Origin: Hydrogenothermaceae bacterium
GTDB taxonomy: Bacteria; Aquificota; Aquificia; Aquificales; Hydrogenothermaceae
Assembly: GCA_026985705.1 (NCBI GenBank)
Contig: JALSPY010000115.1
Span: 1 to 41,206 of the forward strand
Direction of reading: 5' to 3'
DNA length: 41,206 nt
Each line of letters starts with the position of its first letter. Position 1 is the first letter of the stretch. The notes beneath the pieces were generated by a model that saw only the letters and a list, made by a program, of their open reading frames with translations, did no database searches and was not told the origin of the DNA. Positions 1 to 41,058 of this stretch are shown here, piece by piece. The position numbers and the translations under genes are program-made.

Positions 1-716
1 CATCCTGGTCTTAAACCATCTCCAAGTGAGAATGTAACATCATACTTTTTGAAAATATCACATATCTTATCAAAGTTTGTGTATAATGGGTTTTGTTTCC
101 CGTGAACTGTCATCCATTCAGCAATAATTGAGCCACCTCTAGAAACTATACCCATTAATCTATGATTAACAAGTGGTAGATGCTCCTTTAATAATCCTGC
201 GTGGATTGTCATATAATCAACACCTTGTTGAGCTTGTAGCTCTATAATATCTAAAATATCATCCTCCGTTAACTCTTCTATACTTCTAACTTCCTTTAAA
301 GCCTGATATATTGGAACTGTCCCTATAGGAACTGGAGAGTTAGCTATGATAGCTTCTCTTATCTCGTTAAGATTTCCACCTGTTGATAAATCCATTACAG
401 TATCAGCTCCATACTTTAAAGCAACTCTTAATTTTTCTAGCTCACTCTCTATATTTGAAACAACAGCCGAATTTCCAATATTAGCATTAACTTTACACTT
501 GACAGCTATACCTATACCCATAGGTTCTAATTCATAATGATGTATATTAGCTGGAATTACTAATCTTCCTTCTGCAACCTCTTTTCTTATTAACTCAGCT
601 GGTAAATCTTCCCTTTTTGCTACATATTCCATCTCTGGAGTTATTATTCCCTCTCTGGCATAATCCATCTGAGTTTTTCCATATGTTGTGCTTCTAGGAA
701 CTCTATATTTACCCAT
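1..716 (-). CDS. thiC: phosphomethylpyrimidine synthase ThiC, N-terminal ~238 aa (C-terminus lies beyond the left edge)
   Basis: Own translation of the minus strand from ATG at 716 (GGAGG about 8 nt upstream): [33 protein letters not shown]...[11 protein letters not shown]...DLSTGG...VPIYQA...MTIHAG...IVSRGGS...SLGDGLRPG. These are hallmark ThiC motifs. Absent from the ORF track because there is no in-window stop. Confidence 0.9.
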
Positions 717-5391: not shown

Positions 5392-5673
5392 TTCTTACCT
5401 CTTTTAGTTTTTAAAGTTATTAATATTATAACTGTTAGCCTGTTAATTTTGCCTTTTTGGTTAAGGTTATGACAGTACTAACATTAACAAAAGCAAAATT
5501 TTTAGCTTTTTAAACTTTAAGGCAATAACAGTTTAATCAGAACTTGGAGATTAACACTACACAATAAAATTTGAGAATTTAGATATTTCCCTTTATGAAA
5601 AAAAACTTGACTATTAATATTAAAAATATAACTTTATCCTATCGCCAAAACAAAGTTAGAGGGAGGGTAGGAA

Positions 5674-6804
5674 ATGAATTATAATGGAGTAGTTAATGAA
5701 TACCTACCTTATCTGATAACTTTATTAAAGGCTATTGGAATATTCTTAGTAGGATTAGGATTATCCACAGTAGGTAAAACTTTAGTTAGTAAAGGATTAT
5801 CAAAAATCCATATCTTAGAAAGAGAGACAGAATTTATTCAGAGCTTTAGTAAACTTGTGTATTACTTTATACTTCTTATAACTATAGTAGCTGTTTTAGA
5901 AATATTAGGTTTAAAGTATATAACTCAACCATTTATTGATTTGTTAAACGAAGTACTAGTTTATATACCTAATATTATAGGAGCAGGTTTAATACTGTTT
6001 TTAGGTATACTGTTAGCTAAAATATCAAAAGAGTTTATAAAATCACTTCTTATAACATTTAAAGTTGAGGAGTTTGCTAAACAGTATAAGATTGAAAACT
6101 TAAGCGGTGCAGTTGCAAACTTTGTTTATCTAATAATCATCTTATTTGTCATAATGGCATCTTTAAATGCTTTAGGTATCACTGTTATATCTGAGCCTGC
6201 AACTCAGATGATAGCTTCCATACTTTTAACAATTCCTAAAGTAATAGCAGGACTAATAATATTTGGTGTTATATTTTTCTTAGGAAAATTAGTAGCTGAA
6301 ATTATTTCTAAGATTGTTGATGATATCAACATAGATGAAGTAGCCAACTATTTAGGAATATCTTCAGAAAAACTCAAATTTGATAAGTTAGTTAAATATC
6401 TTATACTTACATTTGCAACTTTAATAGGTTTATCACAAGCATTCTCTTATGTAGAGGCAACCGCTTTAAGTCTTTTAACACAACAATTATTGGAGATAAT
6501 ATTTAAAGTTTTAGTCGCATCTGCTATAGTTTTTGTTGCAATGTTTATAGGAAAACAGATAGAAGACAAACTAGAAAACAAAAACTTTGGTAAAGGTATT
6601 AAATATCTCTTAATTCTTATGTCCGTATTTTTAGCCTTACCATTTATTGGAATATCTCCAGAGATAATAGAAATATTTGTATTCACTATAACCTTAGGTT
6701 TAGGAATTGCATTTGCTTTAGCATTTGGATTAGGTGGTAAGGATATAGCTAGAGAAATTTTAAAAGATATCTTTCTAAAGAATAAAAATAGTTCTAAAGA
6801 ATAA
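5674..6804 (+). CDS. polytopic membrane protein with repeated conserved TM-helix modules (MscS-N-terminal-like TM_helix repeats)
   Basis: 376 aa. There are four to five repeats of a hydrophobic helix followed by a basic amphipathic segment (e.g. IPNIIGAGLILFLGILLAKISKEFIKSLL; IPKVIAGLIIFGVIFFLGKLVAEIISKIV; LGLGIAFALAFGLGGKDIAREIL). GGAGGG RBS. Confidence 0.65.
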   Translation: MNYNGVVNEYLPYLITLLKAIGIFLVGLGLSTVGKTLVSKGLSKIHILERETEFIQSFSKLVYYFILLITIVAVLEILGLKYITQPFIDLLNEVLVYIPNIIGAGLILFLGILLAKISKEFIKSLLITFKVEEFAKQYKIENLSGAVANFVYLIIILFVIMASLNALGITVISEPATQMIASILLTIPKVIAGLIIFGVIFFLGKLVAEIISKIVDDINIDEVANYLGISSEKLKFDKLVKYLILTFATLIGLSQAFSYVEATALSLLTQQLLEIIFKVLVASAIVFVAMFIGKQIEDKLENKNFGKGIKYLLILMSVFLALPFIGISPEIIEIFVFTITLGLGIAFALAFGLGGKDIAREILKDIFLKNKNSSKE

Positions 6805-21536: not shown

Positions 21537-21899
21537 ATGGCTCGTATAGCAGGAGTAGATTTACCAGACAGAAAAAGATTAGAAATAGCTCTAACCTACA
21601 TCTATGGTATAGGTAAAACCAGAGCTAAGGAGATTTTAGAAAAAACTGGAATAGATGGAATGAAAAGGGTTGGGGAGTTAACTCCTGATGAATTAAATGC
21701 AATAAGAAAATTTATAGAGCAAAATTACAAAGTTGAAGGGGATTTAAGAAGAGAAGTTGCAGTTAATATAAAGAAATTGATGGATATGGGATGTTATAGG
21801 GGTATAAGACATAGATTAGGTTTACCAGTTAGGGGGCAGAGAACAAAAACTAATGCTAAAACTAGAAGAAAGTTTACAGGAAGAATTAAGAAAAAATAG
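21537..21899 (+). CDS. rpsM: 30S ribosomal protein S13
   Basis: 120 aa, [10 protein letters not shown]...IYGIG. GGAGG RBS. Confidence 0.98.
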
Positions 21900-21915
21900 G
21901 AGGGATTAGCGAAGA

Positions 21916-22308
21916 ATGGCTAGAAGAAAAAAAGGTGGAAAGAAAAAAGTTAAAAGAACTGTTCCGTATGGAATAGCTCATATACAGGCTACATTTAACA
22001 ACACAATAGTAACAATTACAGACAAAGAAGGTAATGTATTAACTTGGGCTTCTGGTGGAACTGAAGGTTTTAAAGGAACTAGAAAATCAACACCTTATGC
22101 AGCTCAAAAGGCAGCAGAAAAGGCAGCAAAAAGAGCTATTGAAGAGTTTGGTATGAAAGACGTTGAAATATGGGTTAAAGGTCCGGGAGCAGGAAGGGAA
22201 ACTGCTATAAAAACAATTCAAGCAGCAGGTTTAAATGTCAAAGTTATAAAAGATGTTACTCCTATACCACATAACGGTTGTAGACCACCAGCTAAAAGGA
22301 GGGTTTAA
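21916..22308 (+). CDS. rpsK: 30S ribosomal protein S11
   Basis: 130 aa, [18 protein letters not shown]...[12 protein letters not shown]-like C-terminus. Confidence 0.98.
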
Positions 22309-22311
22309 TCA

Positions 22312-22941
22312 ATGGGAAGATATTTAGGACCATTAACTAGAGTAAGTAGAAGATTAGGTGTTTTTGTAGGAGGAAGTTTAAAAGCTTTCAATAAAAGAAA
22401 TTTTCCACCGGGACAACACGGTAGAGTTCAAGGCAGAAAGAGAAAATTATCTGACTATGCTATCCGTTTACAAGAAAAACAAAAATTAAGATATCTATAC
22501 GGTGGATTAAGAGAAGGGCAGTTTAAAAGATATTTTGATGAAGCAGCAAGAATTGCTGGTAATAAAGGTGGAAACACAGGGGAAATCTTACTACAACTAT
22601 TAGAGAGAAGATTAGATAATGTTGTTTACAGACTTGGTTTTGCCAAAACGAGAAGACAAGCTAGACAGATGGTAGTTCATGGACACTTCTTAGTTAATGG
22701 AAAAAAGGTAAATAAACCTGCTTATCAAGTTGATGTTGGAGACGTAATAGAGTTAAGAGAAAAAAGTAAAAAATCTCCTTTATTCAAAGAAAATTTAGAA
22801 AACAAAGACCCAAGAACTATTCCAGAGTGGTTAGAGCTTGATAAAGAAAACTTCAGAGGTAAAGTTGTATCATTACCTGAGAAAGTAGAGTTAGAGATAC
22901 CTGTAGATGTTCAGCTCATCATTGAGTACTACTCTGGATAA
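22312..22941 (+). CDS. rpsD: 30S ribosomal protein S4
   Basis: 209 aa, MGRYLGP...LQEKQKLRYLYG...LERRLDNVVYRLGFA. Confidence 0.98.
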   Translation: MGRYLGPLTRVSRRLGVFVGGSLKAFNKRNFPPGQHGRVQGRKRKLSDYAIRLQEKQKLRYLYGGLREGQFKRYFDEAARIAGNKGGNTGEILLQLLERRLDNVVYRLGFAKTRRQARQMVVHGHFLVNGKKVNKPAYQVDVGDVIELREKSKKSPLFKENLENKDPRTIPEWLELDKENFRGKVVSLPEKVELEIPVDVQLIIEYYSG

Positions 22942-22970
22942 ATTAAATCTTAAAGGAGGGAAAAAAGCCT

Positions 22971-23942
22971 ATGCCCTTTTTAGAATTTAAATTCCCAGAG
23001 AAGATATACTGGGATGAAACTTCAAAAACAGAAACATTCGGAAGACTGTATGTAGAACCGTTAGAGAGAGGATATGGAATAACTTTAGGAAATGCTTTAA
23101 GAAGAGTTTTACTTTCTTCTTTAGAAAGTGGAGCTATTACATATGTTAGAATTCAGAATGTTCCCCATGAATTTACAACTATAGATGGTGTAATAGAGGA
23201 TGTTTCAGAGATTGTTTTAAATTTAAAACAGATAAAATTTAAGATGGATGAAAATATAGAAAGTGATTATGCAATTCTTGAGTTTAAGGGACCCGGTGAA
23301 ATAAAGGCTAAAGATATTAAATTACCTGCAGGAATAAAGGCGGTAAATCCTGATACACACATTGCAACAGTTGATGGTGATGTTGAAGTTAAGATGGAGT
23401 TTAAGATAGAGAAGGGAAGAGGATATATAACTGTAGAGGAAATGGAAAAGCCAACAACTATAGGATGGATACCTATAGATACTGCATTTTCTCCTATAAA
23501 AAGATGCACTTATAAAGTTGAACCTAAGAGAATTGAAGGAAAGGCTTATGAAAAGTTGATGTTAGAGTTTGAAACAGATGGTACAATCACTCCGGATGAA
23601 GCTCTAAAGGAAGCTGTAAAGCTTTTAATAAAACATTTTGAATTATTGTTAAATCCTTCTACTAGAAAAGTTGATGTTATTAGAAAAACTGAACCAGAAA
23701 GTATAGCTGCTAGATTAGAGGCTGACAAACTATCTTTAGCAATAGAAGAGTTAGAAATATCATCTAGAGCTACAAATACACTTAAGAAGTTAGGAATAGA
23801 AACTATAGGAGATTTAGTGAAAAAGACAGAGGAAGATTTAAAGGAAGCTAAAAGTATAGGTAGAAAGGCTTTAAAGGAGATAAAAGAGGCACTTGCAGAG
23901 CTTGGATTATCTTTAGCACCATCTCCAAACAAAAAAGAGTAA
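22971..23942 (+). CDS. rpoA: DNA-directed RNA polymerase subunit alpha
   Basis: 323 aa, LERGYGITLGNALRRVLLSS, with a C-terminal domain containing ELEISSRATNTLKKLGIETIGDL. Confidence 0.98.
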   Translation: MPFLEFKFPEKIYWDETSKTETFGRLYVEPLERGYGITLGNALRRVLLSSLESGAITYVRIQNVPHEFTTIDGVIEDVSEIVLNLKQIKFKMDENIESDYAILEFKGPGEIKAKDIKLPAGIKAVNPDTHIATVDGDVEVKMEFKIEKGRGYITVEEMEKPTTIGWIPIDTAFSPIKRCTYKVEPKRIEGKAYEKLMLEFETDGTITPDEALKEAVKLLIKHFELLLNPSTRKVDVIRKTEPESIAARLEADKLSLAIEELEISSRATNTLKKLGIETIGDLVKKTEEDLKEAKSIGRKALKEIKEALAELGLSLAPSPNKKE

Positions 23943-23963
23943 TTAGGAGGTAAGAGAGAAAAA

Positions 23964-24341
23964 ATGAGACATAGAGTTAAAACTAAAAGTTTTAGCAGAC
24001 CAAAGGAGCAGAGAGAAGCTTTATTTATAAATTTAGCATGTGAGTTAATAGAACATGGCAGAATTGAAACAACTTTAGCTAAAGCTAAATATTTAAGACC
24101 TATTGTTGAGAAATTAATAACTTTAGCTAAAAAACAAACAATCCATTCTAGAAGATTATTAAACTCCAGATTGAGAGGAAATACAAAAATAGCTACAAAA
24201 TTATTTAAAGAGATAGCTCCTCTTTATAAGGATAGAAACGGTGGGTACACAAGAATTTATAAGTTAGATAAGAGAAGAAGAGGAGATGATGCTGAGCTTG
24301 CTATAATAGAATTAGTAGATTACCCATTTGAAGAAAAATAA
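23964..24341 (+). CDS. rplQ: 50S ribosomal protein L17
   Basis: 125 aa, MRHRVKTKSFSRP...GGYTRIYKL. Confidence 0.97.
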   Translation: MRHRVKTKSFSRPKEQREALFINLACELIEHGRIETTLAKAKYLRPIVEKLITLAKKQTIHSRRLLNSRLRGNTKIATKLFKEIAPLYKDRNGGYTRIYKLDKRRRGDDAELAIIELVDYPFEEK

Positions 24342-37120: not shown

Positions 37121-37474
37121 TTATTTTCTATATTTTTTCTCTAAGAGCTCGTTAACATTGTTAGAGAGAGTATCTATCTTTTGGCTTAACTCATCAACTT
37201 TAGCGTTAACTGTATCAATTTTTTGAGAGTTTTCATCTACTTTTCCTTTTAAAGTAGATAATTCTGATTTAACCTCCTGAATTTGATTTCTAGCTTCTTG
37301 GTCCGCAGCTGATTTGTTAGCCATGTTAGATAATTTTTCTATTTTCCCATCAATTGCGTTTATTTTTTGCTCCATTTCAGCTTTTAAGTTTTCTAAATCA
37401 CCTTTCGTTGCACAAGAGGCAAACAGAACTGCAGATAAACCTAAAACAGACCCTACTTTTAGTACTTTTTTCAT
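37121..37474 (-). CDS. small coiled-coil lipoprotein (Lpp-like)
   Basis: 117 aa with lipobox LFASC, then heptad repeats (QKIDTVNAKVDELSQKIDTLSNNVNELL). GGAGG RBS. Confidence 0.8.
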   Translation of the reverse strand: MKKVLKVGSVLGLSAVLFASCATKGDLENLKAEMEQKINAIDGKIEKLSNMANKSAADQEARNQIQEVKSELSTLKGKVDENSQKIDTVNAKVDELSQKIDTLSNNVNELLEKKYRK

Positions 37475-37517
37475 GATTTAAAACCTCCAAAAATTTAAAT
37501 TTTAATTACTAAATTTT

Positions 37518-37546
37518 ATCATATGTTTTTTTTTATTTTTTATCAA
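37518..37546 (-). promoter_or_regulatory. putative promoter of the lpp-like gene
   Basis: On the minus strand: TTGATA (37546-37541), a 17-nt spacer, then TATGAT (37523-37518), about 45 nt upstream of the ATG. Confidence 0.45.
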
Positions 37547-37947
37547 GTGTATCAGTTGGTATTTAGTAAATAAGTAAATAACAAATTCCATCTAGCATAG
37601 ACTATAGCTAGTATAGATTTATATCAATACCAAAATGGAAAATTATTTAAAGACCTCCTTTATTTAATGATAAAAACATAGACCTTTAATACAAAGATAA
37701 AAATTAATTGATATTCTAAAAAGTTAATAACAATACTGAAATAAAATAATCCTTATACTAAATATTTTTCTTATAAAGAATTCTAAAAACTGTAGATATA
37801 AGCTCATCCTTAAACTTGCTAATTTATCTCTTAATAATGAATGTAATCTATCTTTTCCGTTTCTCTTTCAAAATTCCTTTACATTTTGATTTATTGAAAT
37901 AATTTCCTTCTTTTCTTCCTTTGTTAACCAAATTTTATAGATAAATA

Positions 37948-37989
37948 AGCAGCTAAAACCCTGTTTTTTAAAACTGGGATACAGCCGCT
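37948..37989 (-). terminator. compound hairpin, possible minus-strand terminator
   Basis: Minus strand: AGCGGCU-GUAU-CCCAGUUUU..AAAACAGGG-UUUU-AGCUGCU, followed by UAUUUAU. The outer 7-bp stem is fully paired only on the minus strand (G.U there, A.C on plus). Confidence 0.3.
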
Positions 37990-38016
37990 TGACATTTTTA
38001 AAATTCTTTTTAAAAT
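37989..38016 (+). promoter_or_regulatory. near-consensus sigma70-type promoter facing the GC-rich element
   Basis: TTGACA (37989-37994), a 16-nt spacer, then TAAAAT (38011-38016). Predicted start is near 38023. Confidence 0.45.
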
Positions 38017-38022
38017 AATTTT

Positions 38023-38240
38023 CAACATATCCCGTTGCCCTAAAAGGGTTGCAACGAAAACTAAACGGGATATGAAAAGAAGAAAAACGAAACAATAAAA
38101 AGAGAAAGTAGCCGTGAGTCTGGCAGGTAAATTTTCTGTCAGATAGCGGTAGCAAGGTGTGGTGACCACCTGTGTAGGGTAAGGTCGCATTAAGCGACAA
38201 ACCCCTACAGAAGCTGCCGATTTTAATCGGTAGTAGTTCA
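38023..38240 (+). ncRNA. candidate structured non-coding RNA of unknown family (strand call tentative)
   Basis: A GC-rich island in an AT-rich, gene-free gap. It contains five hairpins: 38026-38074, 38108-38153, 38156-38170, 38174-38208 and 38213-38234. At least six G.U pairs would be A.C mismatches on the other strand. A promoter lies immediately upstream. The two overlapping track ORFs have no RBS. Confidence 0.45.
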
Positions 38241-38282
38241 CATTTCCCTAATATTTGTAAAAAGAAAAGAGAAATAAAACTT

Positions 38283-40223
38283 TTAAAGCTCTGTGGATTT
38301 TTCTTCTATAAGTTTTCTGGTTTTATTTATAAACTCATCTATAGTATAAACTCCAATATTACCTTTTTTCTTAGTTCTAACAGAAACTGTTCCAGTTTGC
38401 CATTCTTTATCACCAACTACTAACATATAAGGAATTTTTTGGAGCTCAGCATCTCTAATTTTTTTGTTCATTCTCTCATTTCTTTCATCCACATCAACCC
38501 TTAAACCTGCTTCGCTTAACTTTTTCTTAACTTCTCTAGCATACGGTAAATGAGCATCTGATATAGGAATAACTCGTGCTTGAATAGGTGCTAACCATAA
38601 AGGAAGTAATCCTGCATAATGTTCTAGTAAAACGCCTATAAATCTTTCTATAGAGCCAAATATAGCTCTGTGTATCATATAAGGTCTGTGTTTTTTGTTA
38701 TCTTCACCTATGTAATACATGTCAAATCTTTCTGGTAGATTAAAATCAAACTGAATTGTTGAGCATTGCCACATTCTACCTATAGCATCTTTAATCTTGA
38801 CATCTATTTTAGGACCGTAAAATGCTCCACCACCTTCATCTATATCGTAGTCTAAACCTACATCTTCTATCGCTTTCTTTAATGAGTTCGTTGCAACCTC
38901 CCACATTCTATCATCACCTACAGACTTTTCAGGTCTTGTTGACAGGAATATTTGAAACTCATTGAAACCGTAAGATTTTAAAGTGTCTAAAACTAGATTT
39001 AAAACTCCTTTTATTTCATTTTCAACTTGCTCCTCTGTACATATAATATGGGCATCATCTTGAGTAAATCCTCTAACTCTCATTAAACCGTGTAAAACTC
39101 CACTTCTTTCATATCTGTAAACTGTTCCCAACTCTGCAAGTCTTATAGGCAACTCTTTATAACTTCTCTGTTTAGATTTGTATATCTGAACATGGAAAGG
39201 ACAGTTCATAGGTTTTACAAAGTATCCATCTTCCTCTATCTGCATTTCAGGAAACATATTTTCCCTGTAAAAATCTAAATGTCCACTCGTTTTCCATAAA
39301 TTTTCCCTTCCAACATGTGGAGTATAAACAAGCTGATAACCTCTCTTTATATGCTCCTTTTTCCATTCATTTTCTATCTCATTTCTTATGATAGCTCCCT
39401 TAGGCAACCATAGAACCAATCCTGCTCCTACATCTTCATCTATTATGAATAACTCTAACTCTTTACCTATCTTTCTGTGGTCTCTCTTTTTAGCTTCTTC
39501 TAACATATGAAGATATTTCTTTAATTCCTTTTCTGTCCAGAAAGCCACTCCATATATTCTTTGCAGCATCGGATTTCCCTCTTTACCTCTCCAGTAAGCT
39601 CCTGCAAGTGATACTAGTTTAAAAGCTCCAGCTTCACCTGTAGAAGGTATATGTGGACCTCTACATAAATCTACAAAATCACACTGTTTATAAATAGATA
39701 TAGGTTCACCTTCAGGAATTTGATGTTTGATTATATCTACCTTATAAATCTCTTTTTTATCCTCAAAAAACTTAATAGCCTCTTCTCTTGGTAATTCTTC
39801 TCTAACAATTTCACAGTTCCTATTAATAATTTCTTTCATCTTTTCTTCTATTACTGGTAAATCTTCTTCGCTAATTCTTTTTCCCTCTACTTCTACATCG
39901 TAGTAAAAACCGTTTTCTGTTGTTGGACCTATACCTAAATGGACATTTTTATCTCCATATAACTCTTTTAAAGCCTGTGCCATTATATGTGCAAGTGAGT
40001 GTCTAAGTAATTCTAAACTTTCTTTATCTTTCTTTGTTATTAGCTTAAGCTCTCCATTTTCTTTAATAGGAGTGTGTATATCTATTACCTTTCCATTTAA
40101 AACACCACCTATTATATTTTTAACTTTTTTTCCATCTTCTTTTAATCTATTCAGTATATCTTTTATAGTAATTCCATCATTAAATTCATACTCTCCAAAC
40201 TTTTGTATATATAGTTTTATCAT
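38283..40223 (-). CDS. thrS: threonine--tRNA ligase
   Basis: 646 aa with a TGS domain, the editing-domain motif HSLAHIMAQA, class II motifs (FRxE-like YRYERSGVLHGLMRVRGFTQDDAH; HRAIFGSIERF) and an anticodon-binding C-terminus. GGAGG RBS. Confidence 0.97.
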   Translation of the reverse strand: MIKLYIQKFGEYEFNDGITIKDILNRLKEDGKKVKNIIGGVLNGKVIDIHTPIKENGELKLITKKDKESLELLRHSLAHIMAQALKELYGDKNVHLGIGPTTENGFYYDVEVEGKRISEEDLPVIEEKMKEIINRNCEIVREELPREEAIKFFEDKKEIYKVDIIKHQIPEGEPISIYKQCDFVDLCRGPHIPSTGEAGAFKLVSLAGAYWRGKEGNPMLQRIYGVAFWTEKELKKYLHMLEEAKKRDHRKIGKELELFIIDEDVGAGLVLWLPKGAIIRNEIENEWKKEHIKRGYQLVYTPHVGRENLWKTSGHLDFYRENMFPEMQIEEDGYFVKPMNCPFHVQIYKSKQRSYKELPIRLAELGTVYRYERSGVLHGLMRVRGFTQDDAHIICTEEQVENEIKGVLNLVLDTLKSYGFNEFQIFLSTRPEKSVGDDRMWEVATNSLKKAIEDVGLDYDIDEGGGAFYGPKIDVKIKDAIGRMWQCSTIQFDFNLPERFDMYYIGEDNKKHRPYMIHRAIFGSIERFIGVLLEHYAGLLPLWLAPIQARVIPISDAHLPYAREVKKKLSEAGLRVDVDERNERMNKKIRDAELQKIPYMLVVGDKEWQTGTVSVRTKKKGNIGVYTIDEFINKTRKLIEEKSTEL

Positions 40224-40375
40224 CTTATTTCAAACCTCCATAGACAAATATTCAACTAACCTTTTTTATTTATTTTAACAATATATTAAACAAGTTTGAT
40301 AACATAGATTACAAACTTTCAAAGTTTAGATACTAAAAAGATAATTAACAAATGTTTCATAGTTTCTTTTAATTA

Positions 40376-40430
40376 TTTCATAATTTTATAAATTGTTTCA
40401 CAATTTTATAAATTGATTTCACAATTTTTT
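40376..40430. repeat. 2.6 tandem copies of a 20-21-bp direct repeat (TTTCA[T/C]AATTTTATAAATTG[A])
   Basis: Unit 1 is 40376-40395. Unit 2 is 40396-40416 (19/20 identical plus one extra A). Unit 3 is 40417-40428 (first 12 nt identical, then diverges). The array is 60-110 bp upstream of the globin ORF in the thrS/globin divergent region. Confidence 0.85.
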
Positions 40431-40488
40431 TATTAAATCTTTAAGTTTTATTGATAAAATTGAAAAAATCTTTCTATAGGAGGAAAAA

Positions 40489-41058
40489 ATGATAAACTCT
40501 ATTAAATTAGTTCTTGAAAGTTCTGCTAATTTAAATAATCTTTCAAAGTCAGATTTTGAACTACTAAATAAGTATAGAGATATTTTTTCCCAATGGACAG
40601 ATGAGTTAGTAAAAATTTTTTATGATAGCATATTCAAATTTGATAAGACTGCTTCTATTCCATATAAAGGGGAAAGGGAAAAATTAGAAAAAACATTAAC
40701 AGATTGGTATTTGGATATAATAAGTGGAAAACTAAACGAAAAGTTTTGGACGAAACAATGGTATGTTGGATTAGCACATATTCATAGAAAAGTTGATAAT
40801 AAATATATGGTTGCTATGATGGGAAAATTTCAAGAAGAATTTATGAAAAAAACATTTGAAAATTTTGATAAAGATTTAGCTTTAAAAATATCTTTAGCTT
40901 TTAACAGGATAACAAATGCTATTCTAGCAGTAATTGTAGAAGGATATATAAATATGTATATAAAAGCATTGGAAGGTATGACAGGAATTAATAAAGAAGT
41001 TTTAGATAGAATAGTTGCTATAGAGAGCAAAAAATTATTTATAGAATATAAGTCGTAA
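40489..41058 (+). CDS. stand-alone sensor-globin (protoglobin-like) domain protein
   Basis: 189 aa with the pattern FYDSIFKFD...WYVGLAHIHRKVDNKYMVAMM, like the globin-coupled-sensor heme domain including a candidate proximal His. No transmitter domain. GGAGG RBS. Confidence 0.7.
   Translation: MINSIKLVLESSANLNNLSKSDFELLNKYRDIFSQWTDELVKIFYDSIFKFDKTASIPYKGEREKLEKTLTDWYLDIISGKLNEKFWTKQWYVGLAHIHRKVDNKYMVAMMGKFQEEFMKKTFENFDKDLALKISLAFNRITNAILAVIVEGYINMYIKALEGMTGINKEVLDRIVAIESKKLFIEYKS

Follow-up and report, generated by a model that had tools for sequence, protein, structure and literature searches.

A 303-bp mobile repeat downstream of thrS in a Persephonella-like bacterium: a probable protein-less IS200/IS605 transposon with a candidate omega RNA

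The gap between thrS and an lpp-like gene in a Persephonella-like genome (Hydrogenothermaceae, Aquificota) holds a sharply bounded repeat of 303 bp, at positions 37939-38241 of the window, by which is meant the whole stretch of 41,206 nucleotides analysed here (contig JALSPY010000115.1, assembly GCA_026985705.1). Judged by its anatomy, this repeat is probably a non-autonomous, protein-less transposon of the IS200/IS605 type, that is, a PATE (palindrome-associated transposable element). The full explanation goes further in proposing that its cargo is a stand-alone TnpB-type omega RNA and that the unit is mobilised by TnpA; it is held with moderate confidence, the function of an omega RNA being argued from analogy and from the conservation of structure. 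A sequence-only reading of the same DNA had placed an unclassified structured RNA at 38023-38240, as a resident of the thrS/lpp gap. That reading stands where it described an unclassified, structured plus-strand RNA with its own promoter, and falls where it implied a gene specific to this locus. The interval was also drawn too small, as the mobile repeat takes in the promoter and a hairpin at the left end.

Results

Setting of the element

ThrS of the window is 98% identical to that of one Persephonella MAG. Within the thrS/lpp gap, G+C content lies at 48-49% at 38100-38249 as against 15-25% in the remainder, which bears out the localised G+C richness noticed earlier. Two minus-strand ORFs (105 and 110 aa) overlap the element; neither has a Pfam match and their frame is broken by indels in other copies, so that the gap is, as had been claimed, without a credible ORF. 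The stretch of ~460 bp between the element and the lpp-like gene (37475-37933; 15-25% G+C) is free of ORFs, is identical in other assemblies of the window locus, and found no match elsewhere. With Rfam 15, the whole window gave no match at gathering score, and a search of 37450-38350 at E <= 10 returned noise only on both strands, with no HEARO among it; ARAGORN likewise found no match in the window. The description as an unclassified RNA therefore survives comparison with Rfam. The element further differs from RNase P RNA, tmRNA, SRP RNA, 6S RNA and T-box leaders, to which neither Rfam nor ARAGORN yields a match, in being multi-copy and not syntenic.

A Pfam scan of 30 larger ORFs of the window (848-31295) and of the four ORFs at 37121-41058 detected no transposase, tnpB, tnpA or cas gene. 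Y1 TnpA was found neither among the scanned window ORFs nor in the fetched loci, and a crude zinc-finger filter applied to the latter produced no TnpB candidate. The window includes an rpsM-rpsK-rpsD-rpoA-rplQ cluster (21537-24341), and its other scanned ORFs are likewise housekeeping. Upstream of thrS, in the divergent intergenic region shared with a protoglobin-domain gene (40489-41058), a 20-bp unit, TTTCATAATTTTATAAATTA, recurs in ~3.6 tandem repeats (40355-40428), which may constitute an operator array or iterons. The coordinates of the element and its neighbours are collected in Table 1.

Table 1. Features of the element and of the adjoining DNA (window coordinates)
Feature	Position	Strand	Remarks
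lpp-like gene	37121-37474	-	coiled-coil lipoprotein-like
TAM TTTAT	37934-37938	+	target DNA outside the element; precedes 10/11 copies
Left end (LE)	37939-37988	+	long imperfect subterminal hairpin; homology among copies starts here
LE hairpin arms	37947-37954 and 37983-37990	+	AAGCAGCT and AGCCGCTT
Internal promoter	37989-38016	+	TTGACA-16-TAAAAT; sigma-70-type, 11/12 match; predicted start ~38024
H1	38026-38074	+	5' hairpin; 11-bp stem, 27-nt loop; MFE and RNAalifold
Linker	38075-38107	+	A-rich, predicted unstructured; fastest-evolving part
Core H2-H5	38108-38236	+	conserved; RNAalifold consensus
H2	38108-38153	+	
H3	38156-38170	+	GUGA (GNRA) tetraloop
H4	38174-38208	+	
H5	38213-38234	+	doubles as right-end subterminal hairpin
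TEM TTCAC	38237-38241	+	closes both the element and the RNA scaffold (final five bases)
Would-be guide segment	38242-38261	+	flank ATTTCCCTAATATTTGTAAA; proposed from omega-RNA layout; antisense to sequence immediately beyond the thrS stop
thrS	38283-40223	-	stop codon at 38283-38285

A dispersed repeat with abrupt boundaries

At least 16 further loci carry the element, at 84-99% identity, in five or more hydrothermal-vent metagenomes and each time between unrelated flanks. Blastn homology spans exactly 37933/4-38241, with nothing in common beyond, and the flanking genes differ from copy to copy. These copies were reached by two routes: a metagenome scan with a 19-base pattern kept between the window and the copy L011 gave 11 contigs, every one of them from sample Ga0256833 and the majority matching at a contig end, and the spurious 105-aa minus-strand ORF, used as a protein bait, gave four clusters and the contigs L077-L082 from four more samples. 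In other assemblies, contigs that cover the window locus are interrupted within the element, as would be expected of a repeat; L083-L086, which had been considered as empty alleles, were rejected, as they represent the window's own locus. Phage and plasmid collections showed no sequence similarity to the element, and scans of viral contigs returned nothing, a single 17-mer match in a GC-rich phage contig being attributable to chance.

Among thrS loci collected from 65 genomes, ~34 of them Hydrogenothermaceae, blastn found the element only in L011, a Persephonella MAG whose ThrS is 84% identical, and there in a decayed state. The closest relative (L001, ThrS 98% identical) has a different gene downstream of thrS and no element there, and the thrS-downstream copy is missing from ~30 other family members as well. 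With a single, decayed copy at the thrS loci of ~34 Hydrogenothermaceae, synteny fails, and the notion of a resident or housekeeping RNA of the thrS/lpp gap is to be abandoned. Since L011 alone has the element among these loci, orthologous loci could not supply covariation. Conservation in relatives, whose absence the sequence-only reading had named among its refutations, is thus lacking at the thrS locus and present elsewhere, in dispersed copies that are conserved with covariation. As a separate matter, rearrangements downstream of thrS are seen in nearly all members of the Hydrogenothermaceae, and in another Aquificota MAG (L006) a CRISPR array with a GTTTTATCTGAACTAAGTGGGATAGAAAG-like repeat lies directly downstream of the gene (5950-6283).

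The L011 copy (5455-5700), located just past the thrS terminator, has a fold z of ~0 on both strands, and its 27-nt H1 loop has undergone a hairpin-loop inversion, lying in the opposite orientation to the element around it. A covariance model built on the core (R1) recovered, at 27.9 bits, an internally deleted and decayed derivative in L088. This derivative (352-510, minus strand) is ~160 bp long, retains of the element only the left-end and right-end portions, has a degraded H5, and shares its metagenome of origin with the full copy L077. R1 also found a distant AT-rich relative (L033 5928-6102 / L090 560-800, 24.5 bits) that ends with a different hairpin followed by GATAGTTCAC; its fold is not significant and its only ORF, of 56 aa, is spurious. 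It may represent another subfamily with the same TEM. This relative gave a hint of a TnpB C-terminus, but a peptide bait taken from L033 yielded an ORF of just 56 aa.

Element ends and element-free loci at hslU

TTTAT stands before 10 of the 11 copies whose left flank is known, the exception being L078 with TTTGT. On the right, homology stops exactly at 38241 in every copy, and TTCAC is present in most copies that reach this end, including the decayed L011 (L071 has TCCAC and L072 TTCTC). TEM and TAM differ from one another at positions 3 and 5. No terminal inverted repeats were detected among the copies, the ends of which read TTTAT/AGATAAAT... and ...GTAGTTCAC/ (the slash marks the boundary), and no flanking sequence is repeated at the two ends, indicating that the target is not duplicated.

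The left boundary can be fixed at hslU, where an occupied site can be compared with element-free ones. The occupied locus (L077) reads ...TATATTTTAT(AGGGAAATAAGC...GTAGTTCAC)AGATTTTTCCC, with the element in parentheses, and the element-free loci read ...TATATCTTATAGTTTCCCC (L089) and ...TATATCCTTTAATCTTTTCCC (L088). Removal of the element rebuilds the joint TTTAT/AGATTTTTCCC, and thereby the native YIL-TAG end of hslU together with the downstream sequence seen in L089 and L088. In L077, the T of the hslU TAG stop is the last base of TTTAT; the motif is native there, as YIL is followed by the stop in both L077 and the element-free L089. The restoration of this joint establishes TTTAT as target DNA and 37939-38241 as the element. 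An alternative left boundary before TTTATAG, with GTTCAC as target DNA, was ruled out by the hslU comparison and by the published TAM/TEM. A similar comparison at ksgA (L078 vs L005) was rejected, as the loci are not syntenic.

Each end bears a subterminal hairpin: the LE hairpin at 37947-37990 and, at the right end (RE), H5, which ends 7 nt from the boundary. Variants within the LE hairpin favour neither strand (alignment A2). The two hairpins are dissimilar, the best local alignment between them scoring 18 vs 16.9 +/- 3.3 for shuffles, which is not significant; in IS608, by contrast, the LE and RE hairpins are near-identical and one TnpA binds both. This mismatch lowers confidence in an IS200/IS605 PATE, although such kinship of the two hairpins is not documented for every subgroup. 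Judged by eye, AAATA 5' of the LE stem could pair position by position with TTTAT, and AGAAG 5' of H5 would pair only partly with TTCAC. A pseudoknot between the GUGA loop of H3 and the UCAC of the TEM was rejected, as neither L071 nor L072 shows covariation.

Neighboring stop codons

The reverse complements of the TAM and the TEM, ATAAA and GTGAA, each contain a stop codon at positions 2-4. An opposite-strand gene that ends in ...NNA TAA A thus offers a TAM at its own stop and, once the element has inserted, reads ...NNG TGA A, so that the stop is exchanged from TAA to TGA with the length of the ORF kept. The neighbor's stop is indeed a TGA inside the reverse-complemented TEM in L074 (a histidine kinase gene), L077 and L081, and in L070 it is a TAG formed across the element boundary (TA/G). 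For L077 this fit concerns the position of the stop only, as the neighboring ORF is nine codons longer than that of L088, where a 293-nt spacer is found. On the left side, at hslU, the first bases of the element, AG, rebuild the TAG stop. The clustering of copies at the 3' ends of genes is thereby accounted for by the stops within the TAM and TEM reverse complements, and targeting of terminators need not be invoked. This property of the TAM/TEM pair means that insertion at an A-TAA-A stop leaves the neighboring ORF intact, and copies gather at gene ends.

Promoter, fold and conservation of the RNA

The promoter that had been read from the letters alone is the best match in the region. Promoter-like sites as a class are no commoner there than in shuffles (6 found vs 6.3 expected). 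The -35 hexamer, just upstream of H1, shows no change in any of the 9 aligned copies; L067, L077 and L081 depart from the window in their -10 hexamer or in the spacing. Folding of 38015-38250 as the plus strand gives -85.2 kcal/mol (z = -7.74; 0/200 shuffles as good) and as the minus strand -66.7 kcal/mol (z = -4.06), in agreement with the strand originally preferred. All five hairpins proposed earlier are reproduced, at the positions given for them, by the MFE fold and by RNAalifold; the first, H1, has the anticipated 11-bp stem (CATATCCCGTT/AACGGGATATG), which is perfect, and the purine-rich linker lies between H1 and H2 where it had been reported. The linker is 64-67% identical in L077, L078 and L081 vs 90-94% for the core H2-H5, and both the core and the element ends change more slowly than the linker. 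A plus-frame peptide from H1 and the linker had no Pfam or plasmid match. The H1 loop, GTTGCCCTAAAAGGGTTGCAACGAAAAC, was considered as a CRISPR repeat or tracrRNA and rejected: no array occurs in the window, and neither the other loci nor viral contigs contain the motif.

Pairing was counted on alignment A3 (13 copies, 675 cells). On the plus strand 99.3% of the cells are paired, vs 31-50% when partners are slid, and on the minus strand 86.4%. At least six G.U pairs had been claimed for H2 and H5 together; seven are invariant across copies (six in H2, one in H5), and an eighth is found in H5 of the window. In ten variable pairs, pairing is preserved through G.U, and the three variable pairs of the H1 stem change only to G.U. 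Pair 38123-38139 of H2 occurs as G.U, A-U or U-A, pair 38186-38196 of H4 as C-G, U.G or U-A, and the apical H2 pair 38125-38137 is mostly A-U and C-G in L077 and L081, an exchange masked by the aligner's gap. The helices are hence kept by compensatory and wobble changes, which lie among dispersed copies and not among orthologous loci. The five mismatched cells fall mainly in three copies that appear to be decaying, L071, L072 and L066. Changes on both sides are confined to 2-3 pairs, and 42/500 shuffles reach the observed number; the covariation is real but thin, a modest signal from few events among closely related copies.

No two copies share a right flank, and terminator prediction found nothing inside the element or at the end of the scaffold. 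Scaffold and element end on the same base, so that a transcript would run into the flank.

Discussion

The preceding observations permit a model of how the element might move and persist. A Y1 (HUH) TnpA encoded elsewhere in the genome would move the element as single-stranded DNA, inserting it 3' of TTTAT without duplication of the target and leaving TTCAC as its last bases. The internal promoter would start an RNA of ~218 nt at ~38024, which may fold as H1, the A-rich linker and the H2-H5 core, and which would run off the right end to acquire a different 3' guide in each copy. By analogy with TnpB omega/reRNA systems, a TnpB from elsewhere could bind the core and employ the flank-derived guide together with TTTAT, possibly cutting the empty site left after excision so that recombination from the sister chromosome restores the element. 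The use of the top strand, a scaffold at the right end and a 3' guide derived from the flank together correspond to the arrangement of a TnpB-type omega RNA.

Published systems lend this model several precedents. ISGst2 of Geobacillus stearothermophilus, an IS605-family element with TnpB2, uses the TAM TTTAT together with a TEM, TTCAC, that departs from it at positions 3 and 5 (Meers et al., bioRxiv 10.1101/2023.03.14.532601). The element described here has the identical pair and shares with ISGst2 the lack of a target duplication, the subterminal hairpins and an RE RNA on the top strand. However, ISGst2 has a tnpB that overlaps its omega RNA, whereas the present element has no ORF. Protein-less PATEs often encode omega RNAs, with TnpB acting in trans (Meers et al., bioRxiv 10.1101/2023.03.14.532601), and the passage of PMC10691335 that summarises Altae-Tran 2021 describes stand-alone, mobilised omega RNAs that work in trans. 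TnpB is, in addition, reported to be particularly common in Aquificae (PMC10691335). Like such stand-alone omega RNAs and PATEs, the element is a protein-less unit with LE and RE and many copies per genome, with a scaffold ending at the RE boundary, a putative guide from the flank and a presumed TnpB in trans. In contrast to the known PATEs, it contains a near-consensus promoter of its own, a 5' hairpin and an A-rich linker within its 303 bp, and its host is a thermophilic Aquificota (Persephonella) in which candidate partner proteins are only presumed. The TnpB reRNAs of ISDra2 and IS608 follow the same order (target motif, LE ... omega RNA, RE, guide) and the same homing logic, with TTGAT (ISDra2) or TTAC (IS608) in the place of TTTAT. 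Neither by sequence nor by fold does the element match a curated omega-RNA model in Rfam; omega RNAs are highly diverse, so that the missing match need not take it out of the class.

It is conceivable, though in our judgment unlikely, that the element is an IS200/IS605 miniature element in which the hairpins serve as single-stranded DNA signals or are simply selfish sequence, with an incidental promoter and no functional RNA. TnpA recognises top-strand DNA hairpins, as in IS608, so that strand asymmetry by itself proves no RNA; promoter-like hexamers are common in so AT-rich a region; and the copies are young, their conservation being partly inherited. However, TnpA requires no more than a single subterminal hairpin at each end, yet a 134-nt core of four helices has been kept. 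Nor would such signals call for a GNRA loop, for compensation within the internal hairpins H2 and H4, for seven G.U pairs that never vary, or for an invariant -35 hexamer immediately 5' of H1, and the known relatives have an omega RNA in the same position. A functional RNA might also be put to a use other than that of a TnpB guide. We consider it quite improbable, if coherent, that it is a "guide-only" parasite driven by its own promoter, which has become more numerous than its nuclease or has survived the loss of it, and that acts either through an unrecognised effector or through its own outward antisense transcription into the 3' ends of neighbors.

Guides of other mobile elements are very unlikely candidates, whether an IscB/IsrB omega RNA on the minus strand, transcribed from the upstream gene, or the bridge/seek RNA of an IS110/IS1111 element. 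The neighbor at the right end is usually a gene that reads towards it and so turns its 3' end to the element (thrS, histidine kinase, mtnC, HAD hydrolase, ksgA), an orientation that recalls the bias reported for IscB elements, and the internal loops of a multi-hairpin RNA would be in keeping with such a guide; the orientation bias is, however, accounted for by the stops in the TAM and TEM reverse complements. HEARO, the omega RNA of IscB/IsrB, is likewise IS200/IS605-borne and takes its guide from the RE flank, but there the guide stands 5' and transcription of the RNA enters from beyond the element, whereas here the promoter is internal, points outward and lies on the opposite strand; the minus strand folds worse and loses 13% of its pairs as G.U becomes C.A, and neither HEARO nor any other Rfam family matches on either strand. 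An IS110-type bridge RNA, for its part, goes with a DEDD recombinase and requires a target of at least ~10 nt, and the element has no ORF and its flanks have only TTTAT in common. A resident small RNA or cis-regulatory RNA of thrS/lpp, which might for example regulate the 3' end of thrS in antisense or serve as a new housekeeping RNA, is extremely improbable. The strong fold, own promoter and absence from Rfam would suit it, as would a transcript running antisense into the 3' end of thrS and the position of the decayed L011 copy, also just past thrS. Against it, the same 303 bp occur beside differing neighbors at no fewer than 16 unrelated loci, end abruptly at TTTAT and TTCAC, and are absent after thrS in L001 and the ~30 other family members. 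Scarcely credible at all is a small minus-strand protein gene, the 105-aa ORF (37924-38241) that spans the element end to end. Its GTG start falls on the very first base of the element as read in reverse complement, from where it runs through, and gene callers have called it in several metagenomes; the called products nonetheless vary from 96 to 154 aa, 1-nt indels shift the frame in L066 and L070, L011 has a stop codon, no Pfam family matches, and substitutions track base-pairing and not codons.

Protein-less elements with omega RNAs are already known, and the present case, on the preferred reading of a PATE with a TnpB-type omega RNA, places one in a lineage of thermophilic Aquificota. What looked like an orphan structured RNA is thereby re-filed as transposon cargo, and sharp homology ends together with a TAM/TEM pair can classify such RNAs without recourse to any protein. 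Should the alternative of a guide-only parasite be true, the transposon-borne RNAs of thermophiles would gain a new functional class. If instead the omega-RNA reading is true, the element provides an uncatalogued guide-RNA scaffold, with the TAM TTTAT, from a vent bacterium living at ~70 C; R1 could then help to find the matching thermostable TnpB, which may be of interest for compact genome editors.
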